A DNA stretch of 20,000 bases from an uncultured virus (IMG/VR IMGVR_UViG_3300048502_000057) (lineage: Duplodnaviria; Heunggongvirae; Uroviricota; Caudoviricetes): the IMG/VR virus record IMGVR_UViG_3300048502_000057; one strand, 5' to 3'. A program made the position numbers and the translations under genes. The notes under the pieces were generated by a model. The model made no database searches. It had not been told where the DNA came from and was given only the letters and a program-made list of their open reading frames with translations. Positions 1,018 through 19,622 of this stretch are shown here, one piece after another (the first letter of the stretch is position 1; each line of letters starts with the position of its first letter).

Positions 1018-1037
1018 CAACAAGGAGCTTGCTCAAA

Positions 1038-1724
1038 ATGAAGATTTTCCTTTCCATTCTTGCGGCTTTGTTTTGCACGTCCGTACTTGCTGCGGATCTG
1101 CCGACGAAAGCCGCTGCCTATGTTGGCTATCCAACGACGAACGGTTTCTATTACGGCATCGGCACGGGCGGCAACGCGGGCGCCGTCAGTGGTGGAGCGA
1201 TCGGCACTCAGATTGTTCAAGGCGAGATCGATGCAATCATCGGCTATACGGGCAAGTTCGCCGGCAACGCGTTTTGGTTCGCCGAGATGCAAGGCGGCTT
1301 TTCCAACCTGAACGGCAACAGCAACGGGTTTTCTCTTTCTGGCCCCGGCGTTTTTGTCGAGCGTGTCGGCGTCGGATCTCCGATCAATAACCTTTTGAAC
1401 ATTCTGCCGTCGTTCAACTTCCCAAGCGTCCCGACTTTGCCGGTGTTGCCGGCAGGCATTACAGCATCACCCGGCAATCTGTACCTGTTCGCCGGCCTCG
1501 TTGAGCAAGATTTCGGCATCCTCACTGCCTCGGCTACGGGTCACAACTGGATCTTATCCCCACTTATCGGCACGGGCATTTTGACTCGATTGTCAAATAA
1601 CGTCGTGCTCGATACCTGGGCCGGGTGGCAGATGACCGCGACAAATTCGGTTTGCCTAGGCGGCGATCGTCAATGCGTGAAGCCGGGGAACATGATTCGT
1701 ATCGGAACCAGTCTGAAATACTGA
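1038..1724 (+). CDS. Outer-membrane beta-barrel protein, Omp25/RopB-like
   Basis: AAGGAG RBS; signal peptide followed by ADLPTKA, typical of rhizobial small OMPs; GFYYG first strand; amphipathic strands; C-terminal beta-signal IRIGTSLKY. Confidence 0.8.
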   Translation: MKIFLSILAALFCTSVLAADLPTKAAAYVGYPTTNGFYYGIGTGGNAGAVSGGAIGTQIVQGEIDAIIGYTGKFAGNAFWFAEMQGGFSNLNGNSNGFSLSGPGVFVERVGVGSPINNLLNILPSFNFPSVPTLPVLPAGITASPGNLYLFAGLVEQDFGILTASATGHNWILSPLIGTGILTRLSNNVVLDTWAGWQMTATNSVCLGGDRQCVKPGNMIRIGTSLKY

Positions 1725-4207: not shown

Positions 4208-4500
4208 CACGTTTCCCCTTTGAACTGTTCAAGAGCTTGGCGGATTGTCGCCCATTCGCTTTGAACAACCTCCGCAATTTTTGCGAGCCGTTGCCGGTCA
4301 GTGTGCAGGTTCATTGCGCGCTCAAGGCGGTCTTTGGCGCGGCTCGGAGCGTTTGGCTTTTGCCCGGCTATGTCCTTGGCGATTTGCTTAAACACTTCCA
4401 GTTCGTAAACATGGGTTCTTCCAACTAGCCAAATAGTTTGGCGCAATTGTTCATCGCTGTTCGACAACGGCAGCTTTTCATCGGGCGTGAAGCTATCCAT
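4207..4500 (-). CDS. Hypothetical protein (N-terminal part may contain indels)
   Basis: ORF in operon, coupled to the downstream gene. Confidence 0.6.
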   Translation of the reverse strand: MDSFTPDEKLPLSNSDEQLRQTIWLVGRTHVYELEVFKQIAKDIAGQKPNAPSRAKDRLERAMNLHTDRQRLAKIAEVVQSEWATIRQALEQFKGET

Positions 4501-4617
4501 TTTTTTTCAACCATTCTCGGACTTGATTGCGAACAAAGCCGAAATGAGACTGCCGGAGGTATTAACGGATTCGCCTGACGAAAGCGTGACCAATCGCGAG
4601 TTTTCATCGGGCGTGAA
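4475..4617. repeat. 17-bp direct repeat TTTTCATCGGGCGTGAA (4475-4491 and 4601-4617)
   Basis: Exact match read from the sequence; both copies encode FTPDE on the minus strand. Confidence 0.85.
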
Positions 4618-5167
4618 TGTTTTTGGGTCGTCGTGATACAGACGCCATCTGCCATGCCGTTTTGCCTCATGATTGAGTTGTGATGCGGTAGTGCGGGACA
4701 TGCTCGCGACTAGATCGAGCACGTCTTGCTTTGATTTTTCGAACCGATCCTTGCGCATCGCAGCTTTTGATTGCGATTCGGCATCCCAAACCTGCACGAC
4801 GTTGCCTTTGACCGAGATCACGGCATAGGGGCTGCGAAGCCTGATCCCAGATGCGAGCTTGCGCGCCTCTTCCGGGCTTGCCATGACGTAGTTTGTTTCA
4901 TGGGCGTAACCCGTGGTGAACAAGCGCCCAAGCGCGTAAATGCTCGCTACTCGGAAACTGTCTTGCGTTTTCCTCGGACAAATTATTGAACGCCTCTTTG
5001 AGGGCTGCGAAATAATGACCTTGCGATGCCTGCGACCGTTGCTCGTCTACGATCATCGGGTAGACTTCGCCGGCCTGAAATTCCCGATTGCAGTAGGCAA
5101 CAAACGCCGGCTCTGGCGTGAACACTTCGCCAGTCCATCGTAGGAAAGCCGGGCGCGGGCGGGCCAC
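4507..5167 (-). pseudogene. Recombination-associated (NinB/DUF1367-like) protein split by a frameshift near 4915
   Basis: ORFs 4898..5167 (RSQASQGHYFA...SEHLRAWAL) and 4507..4923 (TGYAHE...FEKSKQDVLD) join into one coherent protein; the true stop is probably near 4647. Confidence 0.6.
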
Positions 5168-10710: not shown

Positions 10711-12084
10711 ATGACCGACTATCAGAAATTTCTAGCAAAAAAGAAACTTCGCGCTCAGGAACGCGGATTAAAGCATATGCCGGTGCTTTCCAATCATCTT
10801 TTTCCATTTCAGAAAACATGCGTCGAATTTGCCTTGCGTGCCGGATCGGCCGGTAACTTTCTGTCGACGGGGCTCGGCAAGACAGCATGTGAGCTCGAAT
10901 GGGCCGCTCATGCCGCCGACGCCACGAACGGTCGCGCGCTCATATTGGCCCCGCTGTCGGTTGGCTGGCAGATTGCGCAAGAGGCCGAGCGCTGGGGATA
11001 TGACGCCAAAGTCATCCGCGATATGTCGGAGATCGATTGGGGCATTAATATTTGCAATTACGATCGGCTGGACAAGTTGGAACCGGCAGCGTTCGGCGCC
11101 GTGGCACTTGATGAAGCGAGCATACTAAAATCGTTCGGGGGGAAAACGTCTCAGGCGCTAATCCAGGCGTTCGCGAGTCACCGTTTTCGGCTCTCTGCCA
11201 CGGCGACGCCGGCCCCGAACGATCACATGGAATTGGGGCAGCAATCCGATTTCCTCGGGATCATGCCATCGTCAGAAATGCTCATGCGGTGGTTCATCAA
11301 CGATACGTCCGTTGCCTCGCAGGAATGGCGCCTCAAGAAGCATGCCGTCAATGACTTCTGGGATTGGTGCGCTTCGTGGTCGCGCATGGCGGAAATGCCA
11401 TCCGATCTTGGCGATAGCGACGAAGGTTTCGTTCTGCCGGCAATGAAGATCATTCGGCATCGGGCAGAGGCATCGCCAATCAAGGGCGCGGACCTATTCG
11501 GCATGGTCGATATGTCGGCAACGCAGATGCATGAGGTCAAACGGACCACGGCCGGCAATCGGTCGAAGTCGGTTGCCGATCTCGTCAACGCATCCACATC
11601 GGAGCCGTGGGTTATCTGGTGTGATACCGATTATGAGGCGGACGCGATCAAGGAACGTATCTGCCCTACGCAAAGGAAATCCGCGGTTCGCACACGCCGG
11701 AGTGAGAGAGGGAATACTGCGAGCTTTCGCTGATGGCATCTGTGCGCGTGCTCGTAACTAAACCCTCAATTGACGGGTTCGGGCTCAACTGGCAGCACTG
11801 CGCGCGTACTGCGTTCGTCGGCCGCACATTCTCGTATGAAGGCATGGTATCAGGCCGTGCGCCGGTTCTGGCGGTTCGGTCAAAAGCGCGAAGTCGAAGT
11901 CCATCTGATCGTGGCAGAAGGCGAAGACGCGATTGCGCGCGTGATTGACCGCAAGGCAGACGACCATATCATCATGAAAAATGCGATGCGCGCCGCGATG
12001 GCGCGAGCCAACGACAAGTCAGTAAAACGACAGACCGCATATGCCCCGAAACACAAAGCAAAGGTGCCTGAATGGCTAAAGTAA
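10711..12084 (+). pseudogene. SNF2/SF2 helicase-like ATPase with about 4 frameshifts in 11655-11845
   Basis: LSTGLGKT, LDEAS, ATATPAPND; C-terminal motifs TKPSI.GFGLNWQH and YQAVRRFWRFGQ lie in other frames. Confidence 0.85.
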
Positions 12085-12605
12085 TCAAGTGCATTGAGGC
12101 TACTCATGGTGAAAATTTCTCGACATATTGCGGGGACAGTTGCCAGATCGTGCCTCAGCTCGCATCGGAGACGGTAGGATTTTCCCTGTATTCTCCACCG
12201 TTTACGAACATTTTTATTCGTATACAGCGACAGCGAAGCTGACATGGGGAACTGCACAACGGATGAAGAGTTCAATCAGCACTATGCATATCTCGTTCGT
12301 GATCTTCTGCGAGTCACTAAGCCCGGTCGTTTGACAGCAGTTCATTGCTCTGACTTGCCGTCGTCGAAGTGGAAAGACGGCGTGATCGGGCTCAAGGACT
12401 TCCCCGGCGATATCGTCCGCATCCATCAGTCCGAGGGTTGGATTTTTCATTCGCGAACGATCGTCTGGCGCGATCCCGTTGTCGAGATGACCCGCACCAA
12501 GGCTCTCGGGCTGCTCTACAAGCAACTCAAGAAGGACAGCACCAAGAGCCGCATGGGCATTTGCGATCAAGTTCTTGTATTTCGTAAAATGAGGCCGCCG
12601 AGTGA
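12072..12605 (+). pseudogene. N4-C/N6-A DNA methyltransferase, frameshifted near 12215 and missing its C-terminal half
   Basis: ATG 12072 MAKVIK...YCGDSC...YSPPF, then in another frame YSDSEADMGN...RVTKPGR...VLVFRK; no SAM-binding motif follows; a residual EAAE* ends at 12605. Confidence 0.8.
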
Positions 12606-12703
12606 CTTCGGTTATTGTGCGTCATTCATTCGCCAATCCGTATTGGTGGGGTTGGCACCGCTTTTTGATTTGGGAAGGTATCCGCCGCGGGCGGATGCCA
12701 TGA
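12602..12703 (+). CDS. 33-aa Trp-rich peptide
   Basis: GTGA and ATGA overlaps at both ends; MTSVIVRHSFANPYWWGWHRFLIWEGIRRGRMP. Confidence 0.45.
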   Translation: MTSVIVRHSFANPYWWGWHRFLIWEGIRRGRMP

Positions 12704-12936
12704 CCGATCGGAAAGCCAAGCAGATGCTCCGGGCTGAGCTCTACGGCGATCAGCACGGTTGCTGCTATTACTGCGAGGAACCGATGACGCTGCTTTCTCG
12801 GTATCCGATGGGTACTTCCCTAGCCTCCAACGTTTGCACGCTTGGGCGGGCTCCGGAAGGTCACCACGTGGCCGTCTGCAACGGGTGCAACGTCGGCAAG
12901 AATGAGCGAGATAAGATGAGGCGGCGGGCTGGATAG
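12700..12936 (+). CDS. Degenerate HNH-like zinc-binding protein
   Basis: QHGCCYYCEEPM ... VAVCNGCNVGK; the usual D/E-H motif is absent. Confidence 0.65.
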   Translation: MTDRKAKQMLRAELYGDQHGCCYYCEEPMTLLSRYPMGTSLASNVCTLGRAPEGHHVAVCNGCNVGKNERDKMRRRAG

Positions 12937-12939
12937 CAC

Positions 12940-12969
12940 TTGCCAGCGTCCGGGAATATGGCTTACAAA
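12940..12969 (+). promoter_or_regulatory. Candidate promoter for the structured sense leader RNA
   Basis: TTGCCA-N18-TACAAA right after the HNH stop. Confidence 0.4.
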
Positions 12970-13005
12970 AGCAAACGGCCCGCTAGAAGCTGATCCAGCG
13001 GGCCG
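12967..13005 (-). terminator. Intrinsic terminator of the antisense RNA
   Basis: Minus strand CGGCCCGCTGGA-TCAGCT-TCTAGCGGGCCG-TTTGCTTTT; the G-U pair favours minus-strand folding. Confidence 0.75.
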
Positions 13006-13042
13006 AAACTAAAAGTCCGATATGCTTGGCGGCGGTCGGACA
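12967..13042 (-). ncRNA. Putative CopA/Inc-like antisense RNA (~75 nt)
   Basis: Own sigma70-like promoter upstream, hairpin exposing CGCCAA, ends in a GC-rich stem plus U-tract. Confidence 0.7.
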
Positions 13043-13048
13043 GGAAAA

Positions 13049-13077
13049 GACTTAGGGTCTTTATGCCCTTTTGTCAA
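13049..13077 (-). promoter_or_regulatory. Antisense promoter
   Basis: Minus strand TTGACA-AAAGGGCATAAAGACCC(17)-TAAGTC. Confidence 0.75.
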
Positions 13078-13425
13078 ATATCCTGACAAATAATCCCGCC
13101 AAGCGTCATCGGTTCCATACCTGCCATCTTGGCCGGGGCGCATTCGTGCGTCGGGGCTCGCCATGTCGGGGGCAGGGACGCTGTGTGAGGGTTCTTGCGC
13201 TTGTTCGCTTGCCCTGGCCGGGTGCGTCGCATGGGATATGCCGGTACAGCTGGCGGCGCAGTGGCCGCAAGTTGCATCTTCTAACTTCCGGAGGCGTAAT
13301 TTTATTGCGCCGAAGGGGGTAAGGGGGTGTGACTGTGGGTAGGAAGAAAGAAGGTCTATCGGTTAAGGAAGAATAGTAAGAAAGTATAAGAATATTACAC
13401 TGTTAGCTGTTGAAAGAGGGGAACC

Positions 13426-15900
13426 ATGATCTCGGAACTTCGACCCTACCAAGTTGAAGCGTTGGCCAACATCCGCAACAGCATTCGGGGAGGGGTCAAG
13501 CGGCTGGTTGTGCAGGCTGCGACCGGGGCCGGAAAGTGCCTTGGCATCGGCACGCCAGTTTTAAAATTTGATGGCCAGATTGTTCCAGTCGAAAGCATTG
13601 TTGCTGGCGACCGACTGATGGGGCCAGACAGCAAGCCTCGGAATGTGGTCGGCGTTTGCCGCGACCGTGGCCCGCTGTTTCGGATTGTTCCGACCAAGGG
13701 CGACCAATGGGTTTGCAATGACGTTCATGTTTTGACGTTGGTTGAAAGTCAAAGCGGTCAGATTGTGGACGTTCCCTTGGACGAATATCTTCGCACAAAC
13801 AAAACATTCAAACATGTTCATAAATTATTTTCACCGGAATGTGGGATAGATTTTTCGCCGTCTAACGATCCGGACGTGCCGGGTTATTTTCTTGGTTTAT
13901 GGATTGGAGATGGCACGAAGTCGCTTCGGGGTGTTTCAATATCCAAACCTGACATCGAGGTCCGAGATGAATGTGAGAGGGTTGCGGTCGCCAATAGAGG
14001 AACAATTTCTACTAGTTCTTCTGGCAGTTGCCCAACCTATCATGTCGTCACGCCGCGTGGAAAACCTAATCGGTTATTGGAAAAAATGCGGGCGCTTATG
14101 GGGCGCGGCGACATACCGTTATCGGTGTTAACCGCATCTCGCCAATATCGCGCCTCGGTTTTGGCTGGGGTAATTGATACCGATGGGTACGTTGCAAAAG
14201 GATGTTGTGAAGTTGCTCAGAAGTCCGAGATGCTGGCTAGCGGAATAACGTTTCTTGCTAGGTCATTGGGAATGAAAGTTACATGCGCTGACAAAATAGT
14301 TAATGGAGCAGTTTACAAGCGCATGATGATTAGTGGAGATTTTTCAAATATCCCGACTAGAATAGCTCGCAAAACTGCCGGTACTCGCAAACAAAAAAAA
14401 TGTGCCACTAGAACTGGATTTGCTGTTGAGCCAATTGGTGTCGGAGAATATGCCGGGTTTGAACTAGATGGAGACGGTCGATTTTTGCTTGGAGATTTCA
14501 CCGTTACGCATAACACGAAAATCTCAGCGGCTATAGTCGAGGGGTGCCGCAGCAAAAACAATCGGGTGGCCTTTGTATGCCCAGCAATCAGCCTTATCGA
14601 TCAGACGGTCGAAAGTTTCTACGCGGAGGGTATTCGCGACATCGGGGTTATCCAAGCGAATCACGAAATGACCGATTGGAGCCGTCCGGTCCAAGTTTGC
14701 TCAATCCAGACCATTCAAGCGAGGGGCGCATTTCCACAAGCGCAAACTGTGCTATTTGATGAATGCCACAAGATCCACAAATCTATGATTGCATGGTTGC
14801 AGCATCCGGACTGGCGCAACGTCCCGATGATTGGTCTCTCAGCTACGCCATGGACGAAAGGGCTCGGCAAATATTTTGACAGCCTGCTAGTCGCTGCGAC
14901 GACTTCGGAATTAATCGAGCAGGGATATTTGTCACCGTTCAAGGTATTTGCTTCAGGTCATCCAGATTTGTCCAACGTGAAGGTTGTTGCCGGCGATTAT
15001 CATGAGGGGCAGTTGAGCATGGCGATGCAAAGCGGGGAGCTTACTGCCGACATCATCAAAACATGGCGCGAGAAATGGGGGAAAGGAAAAACCTTGTGCT
15101 TTGGGGTAGACAAGGCGCATGCCAAATCAATCCAAGAGCGGTTCGAATATGCTGGTATCCGTTGCGGATATCAGGATTCTGAAACGACTGCCGACGAACG
15201 CCGCGAGATCAAGCGCAAATTTCACAACGGAGAGTACGCGGTAGTTTCGAATATCCAAACGCTAACAACGGGTGTGGACTGGGATGTTAGGTGTTTGATC
15301 CTTGCGCGCCCAACGCGCTCGGAAATGCTTTACACGCAAATCATTGGACGTGCATTGCGGACGGCGCCTGGAAAGGACTGCGCCTTGATTTTAGATCATT
15401 CAGACAGTTCGACAAAACTCGGTCTAGTTACTGACATTCATCATGATCATCTTAATGGCGGAAAGGTTCAGCAAAAGGAAAAGACAAAAGAAAAATTGCC
15501 GAAGGAATGTCCGCAGTGCCACATGATTAAGAAGGCCAAGAAATGCCCTAACTGCGGCTACGAGGTGGTGATTACGTCCGACATCATGGAGCAGGATGGC
15601 GAACTCGTTGAATTTTCAGGCGGGAAAAAGGGAAAAGGGAAAGCGCGCGAGATGACATCGGACGAGAAGCGCACCTTTCTTGCCGAACTGAAATGCTATT
15701 GTTTGCAGCATGGCTACAAGTCTGGCTGGGCCGCGAATAAATACAAAGATCGATTGAAAGTATGGCCGCATCATTCGATAGCAGATGTGCCGCCCGCAAA
15801 GATGGTTTCTCCCACTACGGCGCTTTGGATCAGAGCGAGAGCTATTGCATTTGCAAAAACAAAAAAAATTGGAGTTGAAGCGGGGACTCCTAGAGCATGA
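13426..15900 (+). CDS. DEAD/DEAH-box SF2 helicase (RadD/YejH-like) with C-terminal Zn finger, interrupted by an intein
   Basis: LRPYQ, AATGAGK|T, FDECH, GLSATP, LTTGVD, QIIGRALR, CPQC...CPNC; GAGGGG RBS. Confidence 0.93.
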   Translation: MISELRPYQVEALANIRNSIRGGVKRLVVQAATGAGKCLGIGTPVLKFDGQIVPVESIVAGDRLMGPDSKPRNVVGVCRDRGPLFRIVPTKGDQWVCNDVHVLTLVESQSGQIVDVPLDEYLRTNKTFKHVHKLFSPECGIDFSPSNDPDVPGYFLGLWIGDGTKSLRGVSISKPDIEVRDECERVAVANRGTISTSSSGSCPTYHVVTPRGKPNRLLEKMRALMGRGDIPLSVLTASRQYRASVLAGVIDTDGYVAKGCCEVAQKSEMLASGITFLARSLGMKVTCADKIVNGAVYKRMMISGDFSNIPTRIARKTAGTRKQKKCATRTGFAVEPIGVGEYAGFELDGDGRFLLGDFTVTHNTKISAAIVEGCRSKNNRVAFVCPAISLIDQTVESFYAEGIRDIGVIQANHEMTDWSRPVQVCSIQTIQARGAFPQAQTVLFDECHKIHKSMIAWLQHPDWRNVPMIGLSATPWTKGLGKYFDSLLVAATTSELIEQGYLSPFKVFASGHPDLSNVKVVAGDYHEGQLSMAMQSGELTADIIKTWREKWGKGKTLCFGVDKAHAKSIQERFEYAGIRCGYQDSETTADERREIKRKFHNGEYAVVSNIQTLTTGVDWDVRCLILARPTRSEMLYTQIIGRALRTAPGKDCALILDHSDSSTKLGLVTDIHHDHLNGGKVQQKEKTKEKLPKECPQCHMIKKAKKCPNCGYEVVITSDIMEQDGELVEFSGGKKGKGKAREMTSDEKRTFLAELKCYCLQHGYKSGWAANKYKDRLKVWPHHSIADVPPAKMVSPTTALWIRARAIAFAKTKKIGVEAGTPRA
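13537..14514 (+). mobile_element. Intein (326 aa) with LAGLIDADG homing endonuclease
   Basis: Starts CLGIGTPV, ends GRFLLGDFTVTHN before T(+1); motifs FLGLWIGDG and LAGVIDTDG; splits Walker A GK|T. Confidence 0.95.
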
Positions 15901-16517: not shown

Positions 16518-16721
16518 GTGATGAACGAGGAAACGCTTATGCCTATGCCAAGCGCCTCGGCTTCGAGGATGAAACTGCGACAGATGATCCGCGAAGGAAA
16601 TGGCGATCCGGAATCGCCTCCGCACCGAACCGACAATCCAGACGTAATCCAGGCGATGCGCGGAGATCCGGCGACTATTTCGGTAGTGCGAGATGGGCAG
16701 AACGTGCCGAAGCGCCGCTAA
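16518..16721 (+). CDS. Hypothetical protein
   Basis: ORF in operon; start GTG 16518 or ATG 16521. Confidence 0.5.
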   Translation: MMNEETLMPMPSASASRMKLRQMIREGNGDPESPPHRTDNPDVIQAMRGDPATISVVRDGQNVPKRR

Positions 16722-16767: not shown

Positions 16768-17028
16768 ATGACAATCGAAGTTGTGTTCCTAGACTCAGGC
16801 CGTGAGCCGCAGTGCAAGCCGGACCCTAAATATCCGAACGGGTGAGATATTGAAATTGCAGGCAGCAACGCTCGTTGCTGTAACAACCTGCCGTATCCCG
16901 CACCTCGCTGCGGCATTTACGAGATCACATGCAATGATTGCGGGTTGAAGGTCGCGCTCACGGTTGCCGGGCGAATTGACGATCCTCGCACAATCACAAT
17001 CCCATGCAAGGTAAAGCTAGCGTCATGA
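16768..17028 (+). CDS. Cys-rich small protein with in-frame TGA at 16843-16845 (recoded, pseudogene or error)
   Basis: GGAGA RBS; frame stays open for 60 codons after the TGA and ends in an ATGA overlap with the ParB-N gene. Confidence 0.65.
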
Positions 17029-17570
17029 AAAACGGAGCTTTACCGTTAGCTAAAGATCCCTTTGCGGCCGGCGCTGCAAAGATGAAATCTGGATTGGCAC
17101 CGCTCAAAAAGTTCAAGCCGTTTCCTAACAATCCCCGAATGCATCCGAAAGCCGAGATCGACATGCTTGCGGCGGTCATCAAGCTCCGCGGTGCAGATCA
17201 GCCTATCGTTGTTGACGAAAAATTCGTGATCCTAAAAGGGCACGGCCGGCTTGCTGCGGCTACGGTCGCAGGCTTAACCGACTTCCCATACGTGCAGCGG
17301 TTTGGGCTATCCGAAACCGAAAAGATCGCAATCCGCATAGAAGATAACGCGCTGCCGCTTTTGTCTGGGTGGAACAAGGAATTGCTTTCGTCGCAATTGG
17401 GCGAGCTCCAATCCGGCGGATACGAAATGCAAACGCTTGGCTTTCCTGCAACGCAACTAACTGCATTCATGACGACGCCAGAAGCGCCGGCAGCGTTCGA
17501 AGCATTCGGCGAGGATATCCCGACAGAGCATACTTGCCCAAAATGCGGGTTTCGGTATTCGGGGAAATGA
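17025..17570 (+). CDS. ParB/Srx N-terminal domain protein with C-terminal CPKCG Zn ribbon
   Basis: PFPNNPRMH, QPIVVD...ILKGHGRLAA, RIEDN motifs. Confidence 0.88.
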   Translation: MKNGALPLAKDPFAAGAAKMKSGLAPLKKFKPFPNNPRMHPKAEIDMLAAVIKLRGADQPIVVDEKFVILKGHGRLAAATVAGLTDFPYVQRFGLSETEKIAIRIEDNALPLLSGWNKELLSSQLGELQSGGYEMQTLGFPATQLTAFMTTPEAPAAFEAFGEDIPTEHTCPKCGFRYSGK

Positions 17571-17745
17571 AACCGCCTTACCGTGTTCCGTCGATGCAGC
17601 AAATCGCGCGGATCAAGCCGAATGGCTTCAAAGCGATTAGCCTATTTGCCGGCGCTGGCGGTAGCAGCCTCGGCTATAGGCTTTCAGGTTTCAGGATGCT
17701 TTGGGCGTCCGAATTTATTGACGCAGCCCGCGACGTCTACGCGGG
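17567..17745 (+). pseudogene. N-terminal fragment of a C5-cytosine DNA methyltransferase
   Basis: AISLFAGAGGSSLGY (motif I), WASEFIDAARDVY (motifs II-III); no PC catalytic motif; runs into an oppositely oriented gene. Confidence 0.82.
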
Positions 17746-18039
17746 TCATGTCTTTTCCCCAATGCTAGCGAGAAACTTTCTCGCGTCGTCCCGCCACTTG
17801 TCGATAACTACCATGCCGTTGTCGGCTATCGGTTCGGCCGGGTCGTTCTGGATCAATGTACGGACAAGATCGACAAGACGATAATGCGAGTTAACCGCTT
17901 TTACGATCAGGGCGGCGTTGGCGGCCCATTGTTCGTTGCTCACAAATATTCTCAAATTCAAAATGTAAGGTACGGCGCAATCAATGTGCTCAATCAATAA
18001 ATCTCGCATCTCGGGAGTGATCTTATTTGTTGATTTCAT
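17746..18039 (-). CDS. Hypothetical protein (97 aa)
   Basis: AAGGGG RBS; ANAALIVKAVN helix pattern seen in many phage proteins. Confidence 0.65.
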   Translation of the reverse strand: MKSTNKITPEMRDLLIEHIDCAVPYILNLRIFVSNEQWAANAALIVKAVNSHYRLVDLVRTLIQNDPAEPIADNGMVVIDKWRDDARKFLASIGEKT

Positions 18040-18810: not shown

Positions 18811-18991
18811 CCACGGGATCTTGCTTTCGGAGAAGTGCGCGAAATGCGAGATCGATAGCAACGATCTTCGCCGGCCATGGGATTACGGCCAATCAATCGG
18901 AACGGGGCCGACAATGCGCCCGACAAATCCTCACCCTGATTCGGATCGGGCGAGAAACTTAGAGGCAAAGCGCCATGAACAAGAAATTTGA
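18749..18991 (+). CDS. Small CxH...CxxC zinc-finger-like protein
   Basis: GGGAG RBS; CSHGILLSEKCAKC. Confidence 0.5.
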   Translation: MKRISTPTIRKKARRAPIRCSHGILLSEKCAKCEIDSNDLRRPWDYGQSIGTGPTMRPTNPHPDSDRARNLEAKRHEQEI

Positions 18992-19622
18992 CCCATACGA
19001 GGTTCTTGGCGTCGATCGGAATGCTACCGAAGCCGAGATCAAGAAAGCTGCCAAACAATCGGCGCGCAAGGCGCATCCCGATGCAGGCGGCAGCGATGAC
19101 GCGTTCATTGAAAACCGCAAGGCGTTAGCCGTATTCTCAAATCCAGAGAAGCGCGCCAAGTTTGACGCGACCGGAGCTATCGACGAAGAAAAACCCGACA
19201 ATTCAACGTCGATAGCAATGCAAATCATAATTTCCGTTATGGCAGAAATCACGAACGGCTATCTTGCGAGTGGTTTCAGTTCGTCAAGAGATCCGCGTCA
19301 TTTTGATTTGATCAAGCTCGTTGAGGGCAAGATCATGGATAAAATTGATAATGATCAGGAAACGGTGCGGCAGGGTAAAAAGCACGCGGCTTTTCTCCAA
19401 GATTTCGTGAAACGGTTCAAGTTGCGCAAAAAGGGAAAAGCATCATTCGATTTCATTTCCCGTCAAATCAATGACGAGATCGCCGTCATCGATGCCAAGA
19501 TTGCGGAAGTAGAAATCATGATTGAAAGCACGAAGCTAGCCTTGGAATTGCTCGCGTCCTATCACTATGATTTCGACAAGCCGCAATCAACGGTGATGAA
19601 CTATTATTTTACGACCACATAA
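18975..19622 (+). CDS. J-domain (DnaJ-like) protein
   Basis: DPYEVLGV...EIKKA...HPDAGG...KRAKFDATG, then a helical/coiled-coil C-terminal domain. Confidence 0.9.
   Translation: MNKKFDPYEVLGVDRNATEAEIKKAAKQSARKAHPDAGGSDDAFIENRKALAVFSNPEKRAKFDATGAIDEEKPDNSTSIAMQIIISVMAEITNGYLASGFSSSRDPRHFDLIKLVEGKIMDKIDNDQETVRQGKKHAAFLQDFVKRFKLRKKGKASFDFISRQINDEIAVIDAKIAEVEIMIESTKLALELLASYHYDFDKPQSTVMNYYFTTT

Follow-up and report, generated by a model that had tools for sequence, protein, structure and literature searches.

A conserved element with predicted RNA structure takes the place of an initiator gene upstream of a phage helicase: a candidate RNA-primed origin

What might start replication in a phage when the place upstream of its helicase gene, where many relatives encode an initiator, holds a stretch with no evident gene? 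The question is raised by positions 13113-13425 of a 20,000-nucleotide stretch of viral DNA (the window), a slot between a predicted antisense module and the gene of an SF2 helicase (Table 1). The window is the final 20 kb of G000, a virus record of 71,235 bases whose ends overlap by 2,024 bases and that is rated 96% complete, the genome being about 69 kb. Its terminase, portal, sheath and baseplate genes mark the phage as a myophage, and the DNA runs that contain the window are peat metagenomes. Promoter style, together with relatives in Roseibium, Aureimonas and Methylobacterium, suggests an alphaproteobacterial host; a contrary hint comes from two close loci on short contigs of an Acidobacteriota bin.

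Table 1. Features of the slot and its surroundings, in window coordinates.
Feature	Position	Strand	Basis
Predicted sense promoter TTGCCA-18 nt-TACAAA, start near 12975	12940..12969	+	Loose scan; same position in 7 initiator-bearing homologs
Predicted antisense RNA of ~75 nt, two stem-loops, terminator hairpin (13005-12976) and U-run	12967..13042	-	Terminator match; fold z -5.3
Switch helix 13017-13036/13093-13112 of the sense RNA (predicted); module end GGTTCC (13116)	13017..13116	+	Folding, alignment
Predicted antisense promoter TTGACA 13077-13072, 17 nt, TAAGTC 13054-13049	13049..13077	-	GTCAA invariant in 9/9 aligned modules
5' motif GTGTGAGGG...CTTG-CCCTGRCCGG...CCGGT, predicted to form two small stems; the window copy has a 16-nt insert	13183..13247	+	Common to L004, L148, L188
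Pyrimidine-rich 5' arm of the terminal G·U-rich helix	13263..13289	+	Folding
Hairpin of the first-pass annotation, capping the terminal helix; L004, L148 and L188 have a three-way junction instead	13293..13311	+	Folding
G-rich 3' arm with G5-TAA-G5-TG (13315-13329)	13312..13339	+	Kept or varied in L148, L188, L004
Purine/AT-rich tail (GAAGGTCTATCGG motif) and helicase ribosome-binding site; candidate unwinding element	13340..13425	+	Match to L025 tail, E 0.002
SF2 helicase of RadD type, LAGLIDADG intein at about residues 38-361	13426..15900	+	Pfam ResIII, Helicase_C, Hom_end_hint

The hairpin GGCGTAATTTTATTGCGCC and the tract GGGGGTAAGGGGG, which a first-pass annotation had read as parts of an RNA-primed origin, lie exactly at 13293-13311 and 13315-13327, and the purine-rich run that it described is present as well (13328-13425 holds 37 A, 30 G, 23 T and 8 C; 13313-13392 ties for the most purine-rich 80-nt stretch in the window). 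The G-tract occurs once in the window and none of 200 shuffles yielded one, the pattern having been picked after the tract was seen. No convincing ORF had been noted, and the sole ATG-started ORF of the slot, 59 codons at 13163-13342, indeed has no PHROG or Pfam match and is frameshifted in the near-identical L026. Reading through the stops in 12 frames gave no similarity to initiators (DUF1376, phrog_1408, 3926, 1701 and 1032; best window E 1.5). No reading frame is conserved across the members of the element described below, the L148 copy having a stop, and the slot contains no iteron-like repeats, unlike the initiator-bearing relatives. It is not an assembly gap, since it is identical in L002, differs at only 3 of 315 positions in L001, L027, L028 and L029, all independent assemblies, and is crossed entirely by single DNA-run contigs. 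From three of six RNA runs, contigs gave six 151-nt pieces, one touching 13387-13425, the others on the helicase and none over the element; such contigs cannot show absence.

When folded, the slot ends in a G·U-rich hairpin predicted at 13263-13339, with the G-tract as its 3' arm. The hairpin first described is therefore present but forms only the tip of a longer predicted helix, and the G-tract is not the free run that had been assumed, 38 of 39 G across the members being predicted as paired. The terminal domain of the window (z -6.6) reaches -43.6 kcal/mol as sense RNA, against -13.7 as antisense RNA and -12.1 as DNA, with 10 of its 33 pairs being G·U, and folding of the sense RNA is the favoured one (z -6.9 vs -3.6). 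Isolated fragments of the G-tract gave weak quadruplex predictions in three of four members and none in L188, while in full context the same 38 of 39 G are paired. As RNA:RNA values, the G·U helix is worth -24.8 kcal/mol, compared with -50.5 kcal/mol for a perfect complement of the G arm.

Three distant loci carry a homolog of the element. L004 has two motifs in common with the window; L148 was found with a DNA pattern taken from the 5' motif and L188 with a second pattern, neither of which held the G-tract or the helicase. Both L148 and L188 nevertheless carry G4-6-TAA-G4-6-TG, a purine tail and, 1.2-1.4 kb downstream, a helicase of the same RadD-like family. The tract reads G6-TAA-G6-TG in L148 and G4-TAA-G4-TG in L188, with the variant G6-AGA-GG-T-GGG in L004, so the conservation asked of relatives extends to the TAA form in three of the four members but fails for L004. 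Folded singly, all four give a terminal helix with the G-tract as 3' arm, a C/U-rich 5' arm and an unpaired A in the TAA, the partners of the G residues alternating between C and U; the top of the helix is a three-way junction in three members and a single tip in the window. The terminal domain has z values of -2.5 in L004 and L188 and of -0.8 in L148, the last no better than shuffles. A search of 573 kb with a covariance model built from L004, L148 and L188 recovered the element of the window with E 7e-4, the next non-member lying at E 0.15 (E 2.4e-5 when the window alone is searched); with the search patterns derived from the window and L004, this recovery is not fully independent. MAFFT and RNAalifold alignments of the members are poor, and four lineages are too few for covariation statistics. 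The sequence-only model R1 missed L188, and further members may thus be hidden.

No Rfam match was seen for the window even at E 10, for 13 related loci at gathering score, or for L148, L188 and three modules at E 1. A literature search of papers outside subscription revealed no description of the element, though a related motif missing from Rfam may be described in the supplement of PMC5737381. We take the element to be real, conserved and uncatalogued and, as modelled, structured. The pattern scans also returned chance matches, which made up 11 of 15 in one scan (the other four being L001, L002, L004 and L148) and 31 of 34 in another; the L011 match, and L153 and L154 among five pattern matches, were due to chance.

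To see what relatives carry at this position, 52 non-redundant helicase loci at >=45% identity, the window included, were compared after duplicates, weaker matches and unmatched helicase starts had been dropped. A short initiator-like ORF, mostly of 110-180 residues and of five PHROG/Pfam types, lies within 1.6 kb upstream of the helicase in 27, while 12 have a GC-rich stretch of 200-600 nt that, judged by eye, has no initiator ORF; 5 have less than 500 nt of flank and 8 were not classed. The antisense module of the window is homologous in seven of the initiator-bearing loci (four by blastn and three more by alignment), from which the window diverges right at the module end. In the relatives the initiator gene comes immediately after GGTTCC, except in L036, where a single short ORF intervenes. 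An intact initiator in relatives had been named as evidence that would overturn the first reading, and with such an ORF in 27 loci, several behind a homologous module, that is half the case; the other half, a deletion remnant, is not borne out, 12 loci being non-coding. When the non-coding state is mapped onto a quick tree of 46 helicase rows, from which 5 short ones and L015 were omitted, eight changes are required, at least five of them forced by well-supported branches, and the rows nearest to the window carry DUF1376. Judged from these sequences, the comparison shows an alternative cassette, the slot being filled by a short initiator ORF in some relatives and by non-coding sequence in others.

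The other ten non-coding slots match neither model R1 nor model R2 and are analogous, not demonstrably homologous, to the window element; for most of them folding predicts a pyrimidine/purine hairpin of similar kind at the end. Across the class, non-coding slots fold with a mean z of -2.4 (n=14) against -1.0 for initiator slots (n=17), an excess that is not significant (p 0.059), and strand asymmetry has p 0.08. G-runs of >=4 near the slot end occur in 11 of 14 non-coding and 12 of 27 initiator slots, a weak difference that is not independent. The purine tail, present as first noted, is not specific to the element, a similar tail following the initiator ORFs of relatives; its motif scores above shuffles in the 27 initiator loci (235 vs 180-185), and in the window it ranks 79 of 20,000 for a 135-nt target, which is not significant alone. 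Further, seemingly unrelated non-coding elements fill the slot in L052, L053 and L081; in L018 and L075; and in L049, L077 and L080. L052 and L053 have one antisense module in common with different downstream elements, that of L053 ending in G5-CCA-G8. Phage ProQ/FinO genes adjoin 2 of the 12 non-coding slots, lying between the antisense module and the non-coding stretch (L055:4324-4674, L075:3382-3843).

The initiators found before the helicase are mostly trimmed to the N-terminal DNA-binding part (L014:4102-4455, L041:795-1130, L044:1405-1800, L056:4459-5004). They belong to five interchangeable families, often in genomes with no primase, and are followed by short repeats and the common purine tail. 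In L017 the initiator slot (4273-5004) encodes a candidate new initiator, a protein of 243 residues that belongs to no known family; a primase gene follows the helicase in this locus. Among 401 genomes of one alphaproteobacterial order there were four helicase matches, the three new ones having an initiator or primase beside the helicase; in cultured phages and plasmids there was no DNA match, and helicases of 36-43% identity were all that turned up.

Scans of selected ORFs and six-frame searches of known families found no initiator, primase, DnaB, PolA, integrase, serine recombinase or ParA in G000, so the original remark that the window has no initiator or primase extends, for known families, to the whole 71-kb record. 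Six custom initiator models and family searches found nothing in G000, G002 or G004, and in G002 and G004, complete genomes with non-coding slots, no initiator or primase was found (one scan covering 87 of about 150 ORFs). The partial records of L148 and L188, 43% and 38% complete, likewise gave no initiator. G001, the genome of L004, does encode a full-length DUF1376 initiator-like protein, 3.6 kb downstream of the helicase start. True as it is of G000, the absence of a primase is not specific, the initiator-bearing G010, G011 and G012 also being without one. Six metagenome loci were left out of the whole-record searches. ParA (PF13614) was not found in G000, G001, G023 or G426; a ParB-like ORF at 17004 lies 3.6 kb away, among methylase genes. 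Many ORFs of G000 belong to no family, and recombination genes (Erf, exonuclease, resolvase) are present. A phrog_510 'primase' match in G000 proved to be the helicase intein. Cumulative GC skew turns at divergent promoters 4 kb from the slot and is uninformative.

Upstream lie promoter-like sites of opposite orientation and a terminator, from which we predict a sense RNA that starts at about 12975 and, overlapping its 5' end, an antisense RNA of ~75 nt. The sites are weak singly, shuffles giving 0.2-0.5 per strand, and their support is conservation; a strict sigma-70 scan did not find the sense promoter, and the loose scan missed the sense promoter of L188 and the antisense promoter of L004. 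Five of ten consensus pairs of the terminator have double changes across nine sequences. The window and L001 modules differ by 7 bases and 8 gap positions, all within the predicted antisense RNA; the element, by comparison, differs at 3 of 315 positions and the helicase at 4 of 1,389. Both alleles are present in three of four DNA runs examined. It would seem that these differences fit specificity variants. When the part covered by the antisense RNA was blocked in the model, the switch helix was lost and the freed strand paired at 13128-13137 or 13240-13256, with the G-tract helix staying intact; on this modelling, antisense gating of priming is plausible. The module end TCGGTTCC can pair with the ribosome-binding site of the initiator, with changes that preserve pairing (L014:4077-4104, L088, L041, L025, L032), and is a candidate translational switch. 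In the seven initiator-bearing modules, blocking the antisense-covered part did not consistently lower accessibility of the ribosome site.

Several known systems invite comparison. The ColE1 origin has no Rep, and the 5' end of its long sense transcript is overlapped by a short antisense RNA (PMC8683028, PMC12966454). The phage resembles it in the lack of a detected Rep, in predicted antisense geometry and in antisense variants that differ between otherwise identical relatives. It differs in having no Rfam match and a best plasmid blastn hit of only E 2, in distance to the G-tract (~365 nt vs ~550 nt), in a ~75-nt two-loop antisense RNA instead of the ~100-nt three-loop RNA I, and in being a 69-kb myophage with a helicase in the same operon as opposed to a small gammaproteobacterial plasmid. 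The MRB plasmids pB1067/pES213 of Vibrionaceae have a 68-nt RNA I of two stem-loops, complementary to an RNA II of at least 465 nt, and are unrelated in sequence to ColE1 (PMC3035462). A short two-stem-loop antisense RNA over a longer RNA is predicted here too, in a phage and not a plasmid, and with no significant plasmid match.

The nearest precedent for an RNA replacing an initiator in phages is the plasmid prophages of mycobacteriophages: among related cluster A phages one position is occupied either by a protein initiator or by a non-coding RNA, and the non-RepA origins adjoin parABS, serve plasmid prophages and are dispensable for lytic growth (PMC7157519). The likeness lies in the non-coding stretch that stands for an initiator among relatives (27 vs 12 of 52), the RNA being predicted here; unlike those phages, this one yielded neither ParA nor integrase, and its slot belongs to an early lytic-type operon that includes a helicase. 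At T4 oriF and oriG a promoter precedes an AT-rich unwinding element, and the SF2 helicase UvsW acts on R-loops and shuts the origins off; these R-loops need no specific sequence or antisense RNA, and T4 has its own replisome (PMC3016281). A predicted promoter, AT-rich tail and SF2 helicase recur here, with the difference of a specific conserved element and an antisense module. In mitochondria the G-rich CSB II, which acts by way of an RNA-DNA hybrid quadruplex, has been linked to the formation of R-loops and primers (PMC3488243), whereas the G-runs here are predicted to be paired in an RNA helix. The structured motifs ARRPOF, GEBRO and PAGEV, of 223-349 nt, are tied to replication, ARRPOF lying in a region that replicates without rep (PMC5737381); they are plasmid motifs of other phyla, and the window has no Rfam match. 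In repABC an antisense ctRNA and a large leader stem-loop lie upstream of an alphaproteobacterial initiator gene (PMC3155836), an arrangement like that of the initiator-bearing relatives; in the window no initiator ORF follows, and no Rfam ctRNA match was obtained there or in L014, L071, L025, L036 or L041.

We consider the chances about even that the element is an antisense-gated, ColE1-like primer RNA, an RNA-primed origin in place of a protein initiator, of which priming and gating are the steps that we infer. The transcript from about 12975 would fold, hybridise to its template at or just past the G-tract and prime DNA synthesis, gated by the predicted 75-nt antisense RNA, whose binding would refold the RNA upstream. 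Being much weaker than a perfect hybrid of the G arm, the G·U-rich helix could swap into an R-loop beside the AT-rich tail, exchanged for pairing with the C-rich template strand, and the hybrid would anchor the R-loop over the AT/purine tail. By analogy with ColE1 (PMC12966454), host RNase H and Pol I would process and extend the primer. The helicase, of which an intein-free relative has RadD as its only PDB match (E 9e-17), may remodel or remove the R-loop, or may serve recombination-dependent replication with Erf, exonuclease and resolvase; since UvsW, the T4 SF2 helicase, removes origin R-loops, it may oppose priming and not assist it.

What points to an origin cassette is that initiator and repeats are replaced while the upstream switch and downstream tail are kept. 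Positional equivalence to the 27 initiator ORFs, seven behind a homologous module, argues for a primer origin, as do the recurrence of the non-coding state (12 of 52 loci, at least five changes on the tree) and three distant homologs upstream of the same helicase, L148 and L188 having been found by DNA pattern alone. Sense-favoured RNA folding, the missing coding signal and the lack of a detected initiator in G000, G002 and G004 point the same way, as do geometry like that of ColE1 and MRB plasmids (PMC8683028, PMC3035462), the replacement of repA by RNA in mycobacteriophage origins (PMC7157519) and the ProQ/FinO genes beside two non-coding slots. Against it are the DUF1376 gene of G001 and the partial L148 and L188 records; modelled antisense binding that leaves the G-tract helix intact, with the tract paired; the departures of L004 (no TAA form) and L148 (terminal z), together with a marginal class-wide folding excess; the promoters missed in L188 and L004; and the initiator-bearing genomes G010-G012 that equally have no primase. 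With no integrase, serine recombinase or ParA found in G000, a need for copy control is unexplained.

The next reading, which we regard as having a modest but real chance, is an antisense-controlled leader, an attenuator or an RNA antiterminator in the manner of repABC ctRNA or HK022 put, that sets expression of the helicase operon, with replication by recombination or from elsewhere. It would account for the same module standing before initiator genes, as ctRNA does before repC (PMC3155836), for the element lying on the operon's transcript in a phage with recombination genes, and for the absence of partition or integration genes calling for copy control. It sits less well with the gene after the element, which varies, the helicase being 0 to 1.8 kb away, with the purines, not a U-run, that follow the terminal helix, and with the position of the element in place of initiator plus repeats, ahead of the tail that follows initiators.

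Unlikely, though not negligible, is an origin of folded single-stranded DNA, as in the ssi and Frpo signals, with transcription opening the duplex and top-strand hairpins, once displaced, loading host primase, PriA or the phage helicase. The sense strand is the displaced strand of an R-loop too, the three homologs fold at -21 to -27 kcal/mol as DNA, and RNA and ssDNA motifs are hard to distinguish (Weinberg et al., PMC5737381). The window domain, however, relies on G·U pairs and as DNA reaches only -12.1, close to its antisense strand (-10.1). Only marginally less probable is a cis origin needing an initiator in trans, supplied by an unrecognised phage gene, a co-infecting phage or the host; the DUF1376 gene elsewhere in G001, the many G000 ORFs of no family and the stretches missing from the window assembly would allow for it, but the slot has no iteron-like repeats, and the custom models and family searches came back empty in G000, G002 and G004. 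That the slot is what remains of an initiator gene lost by deletion or decay, or that it reflects a gap in assembly, as the initiators of 27 relatives and the frameshifts and gaps elsewhere in the window might suggest, is very improbable and largely refuted by structured homologs in three distant phages, the slot also being intact in independent assemblies with no initiator similarity through its stops.

A broader form of the primer-origin reading, which we hold tentatively and would not expect to be the likelier outcome, is that in this phage group a single antisense switch and a single purine tail flank a plug-in slot, in which structured primer RNAs of several unrelated families have repeatedly replaced protein initiators. 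If so, there would be RNA-primed, antisense-gated origins in phages without integrase, partition system, primase or polymerase, and a G·U hairpin that flips into an R-loop. RNA-primed, antisense-controlled origins are already known from ColE1 and MRB plasmids, and RNA-based origins from some mycobacteriophage prophages. If true, the present case would add a new family of structured RNA, absent from Rfam, in phages whose hosts are probably Alphaproteobacteria. It would also provide a natural series in which the slot behind a single switch is taken by either a protein initiator or an RNA, and from the 500-bp unit one could derive vectors that need no Rep and whose compatibility is set by the antisense RNA.

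Elsewhere in the genome, the genes for an SNF2 helicase, methylases and terminase are frameshifted or cut (window 10711-12936, 16532-16535, 17570-17950; G000:C1:4691-5889). In L001 and L003 the SNF2 and methylase genes are intact but different, and these loci also have stretches of 140 bp and 1.4 kb that are missing from the window; the frameshifts and gaps are likely to be assembly errors or strain mosaicism. The LAGLIDADG intein (window 13537-14508) sits in the Walker A motif of the helicase and is missing from most relatives, such as L004 and L014. A 231-residue ORF at window 1029-1724 has no PHROG match and by eye resembles an alphaproteobacterial outer-membrane protein. The early-middle region encodes a DnaJ-like protein (by eye) and a DHH phosphoesterase (window 18975-19622; G000:C1:2564-3463), and the portal ORF (G000:C1:7743-12038), of 1,431 residues, includes a fused NUDIX domain as well as a long C-terminal part.
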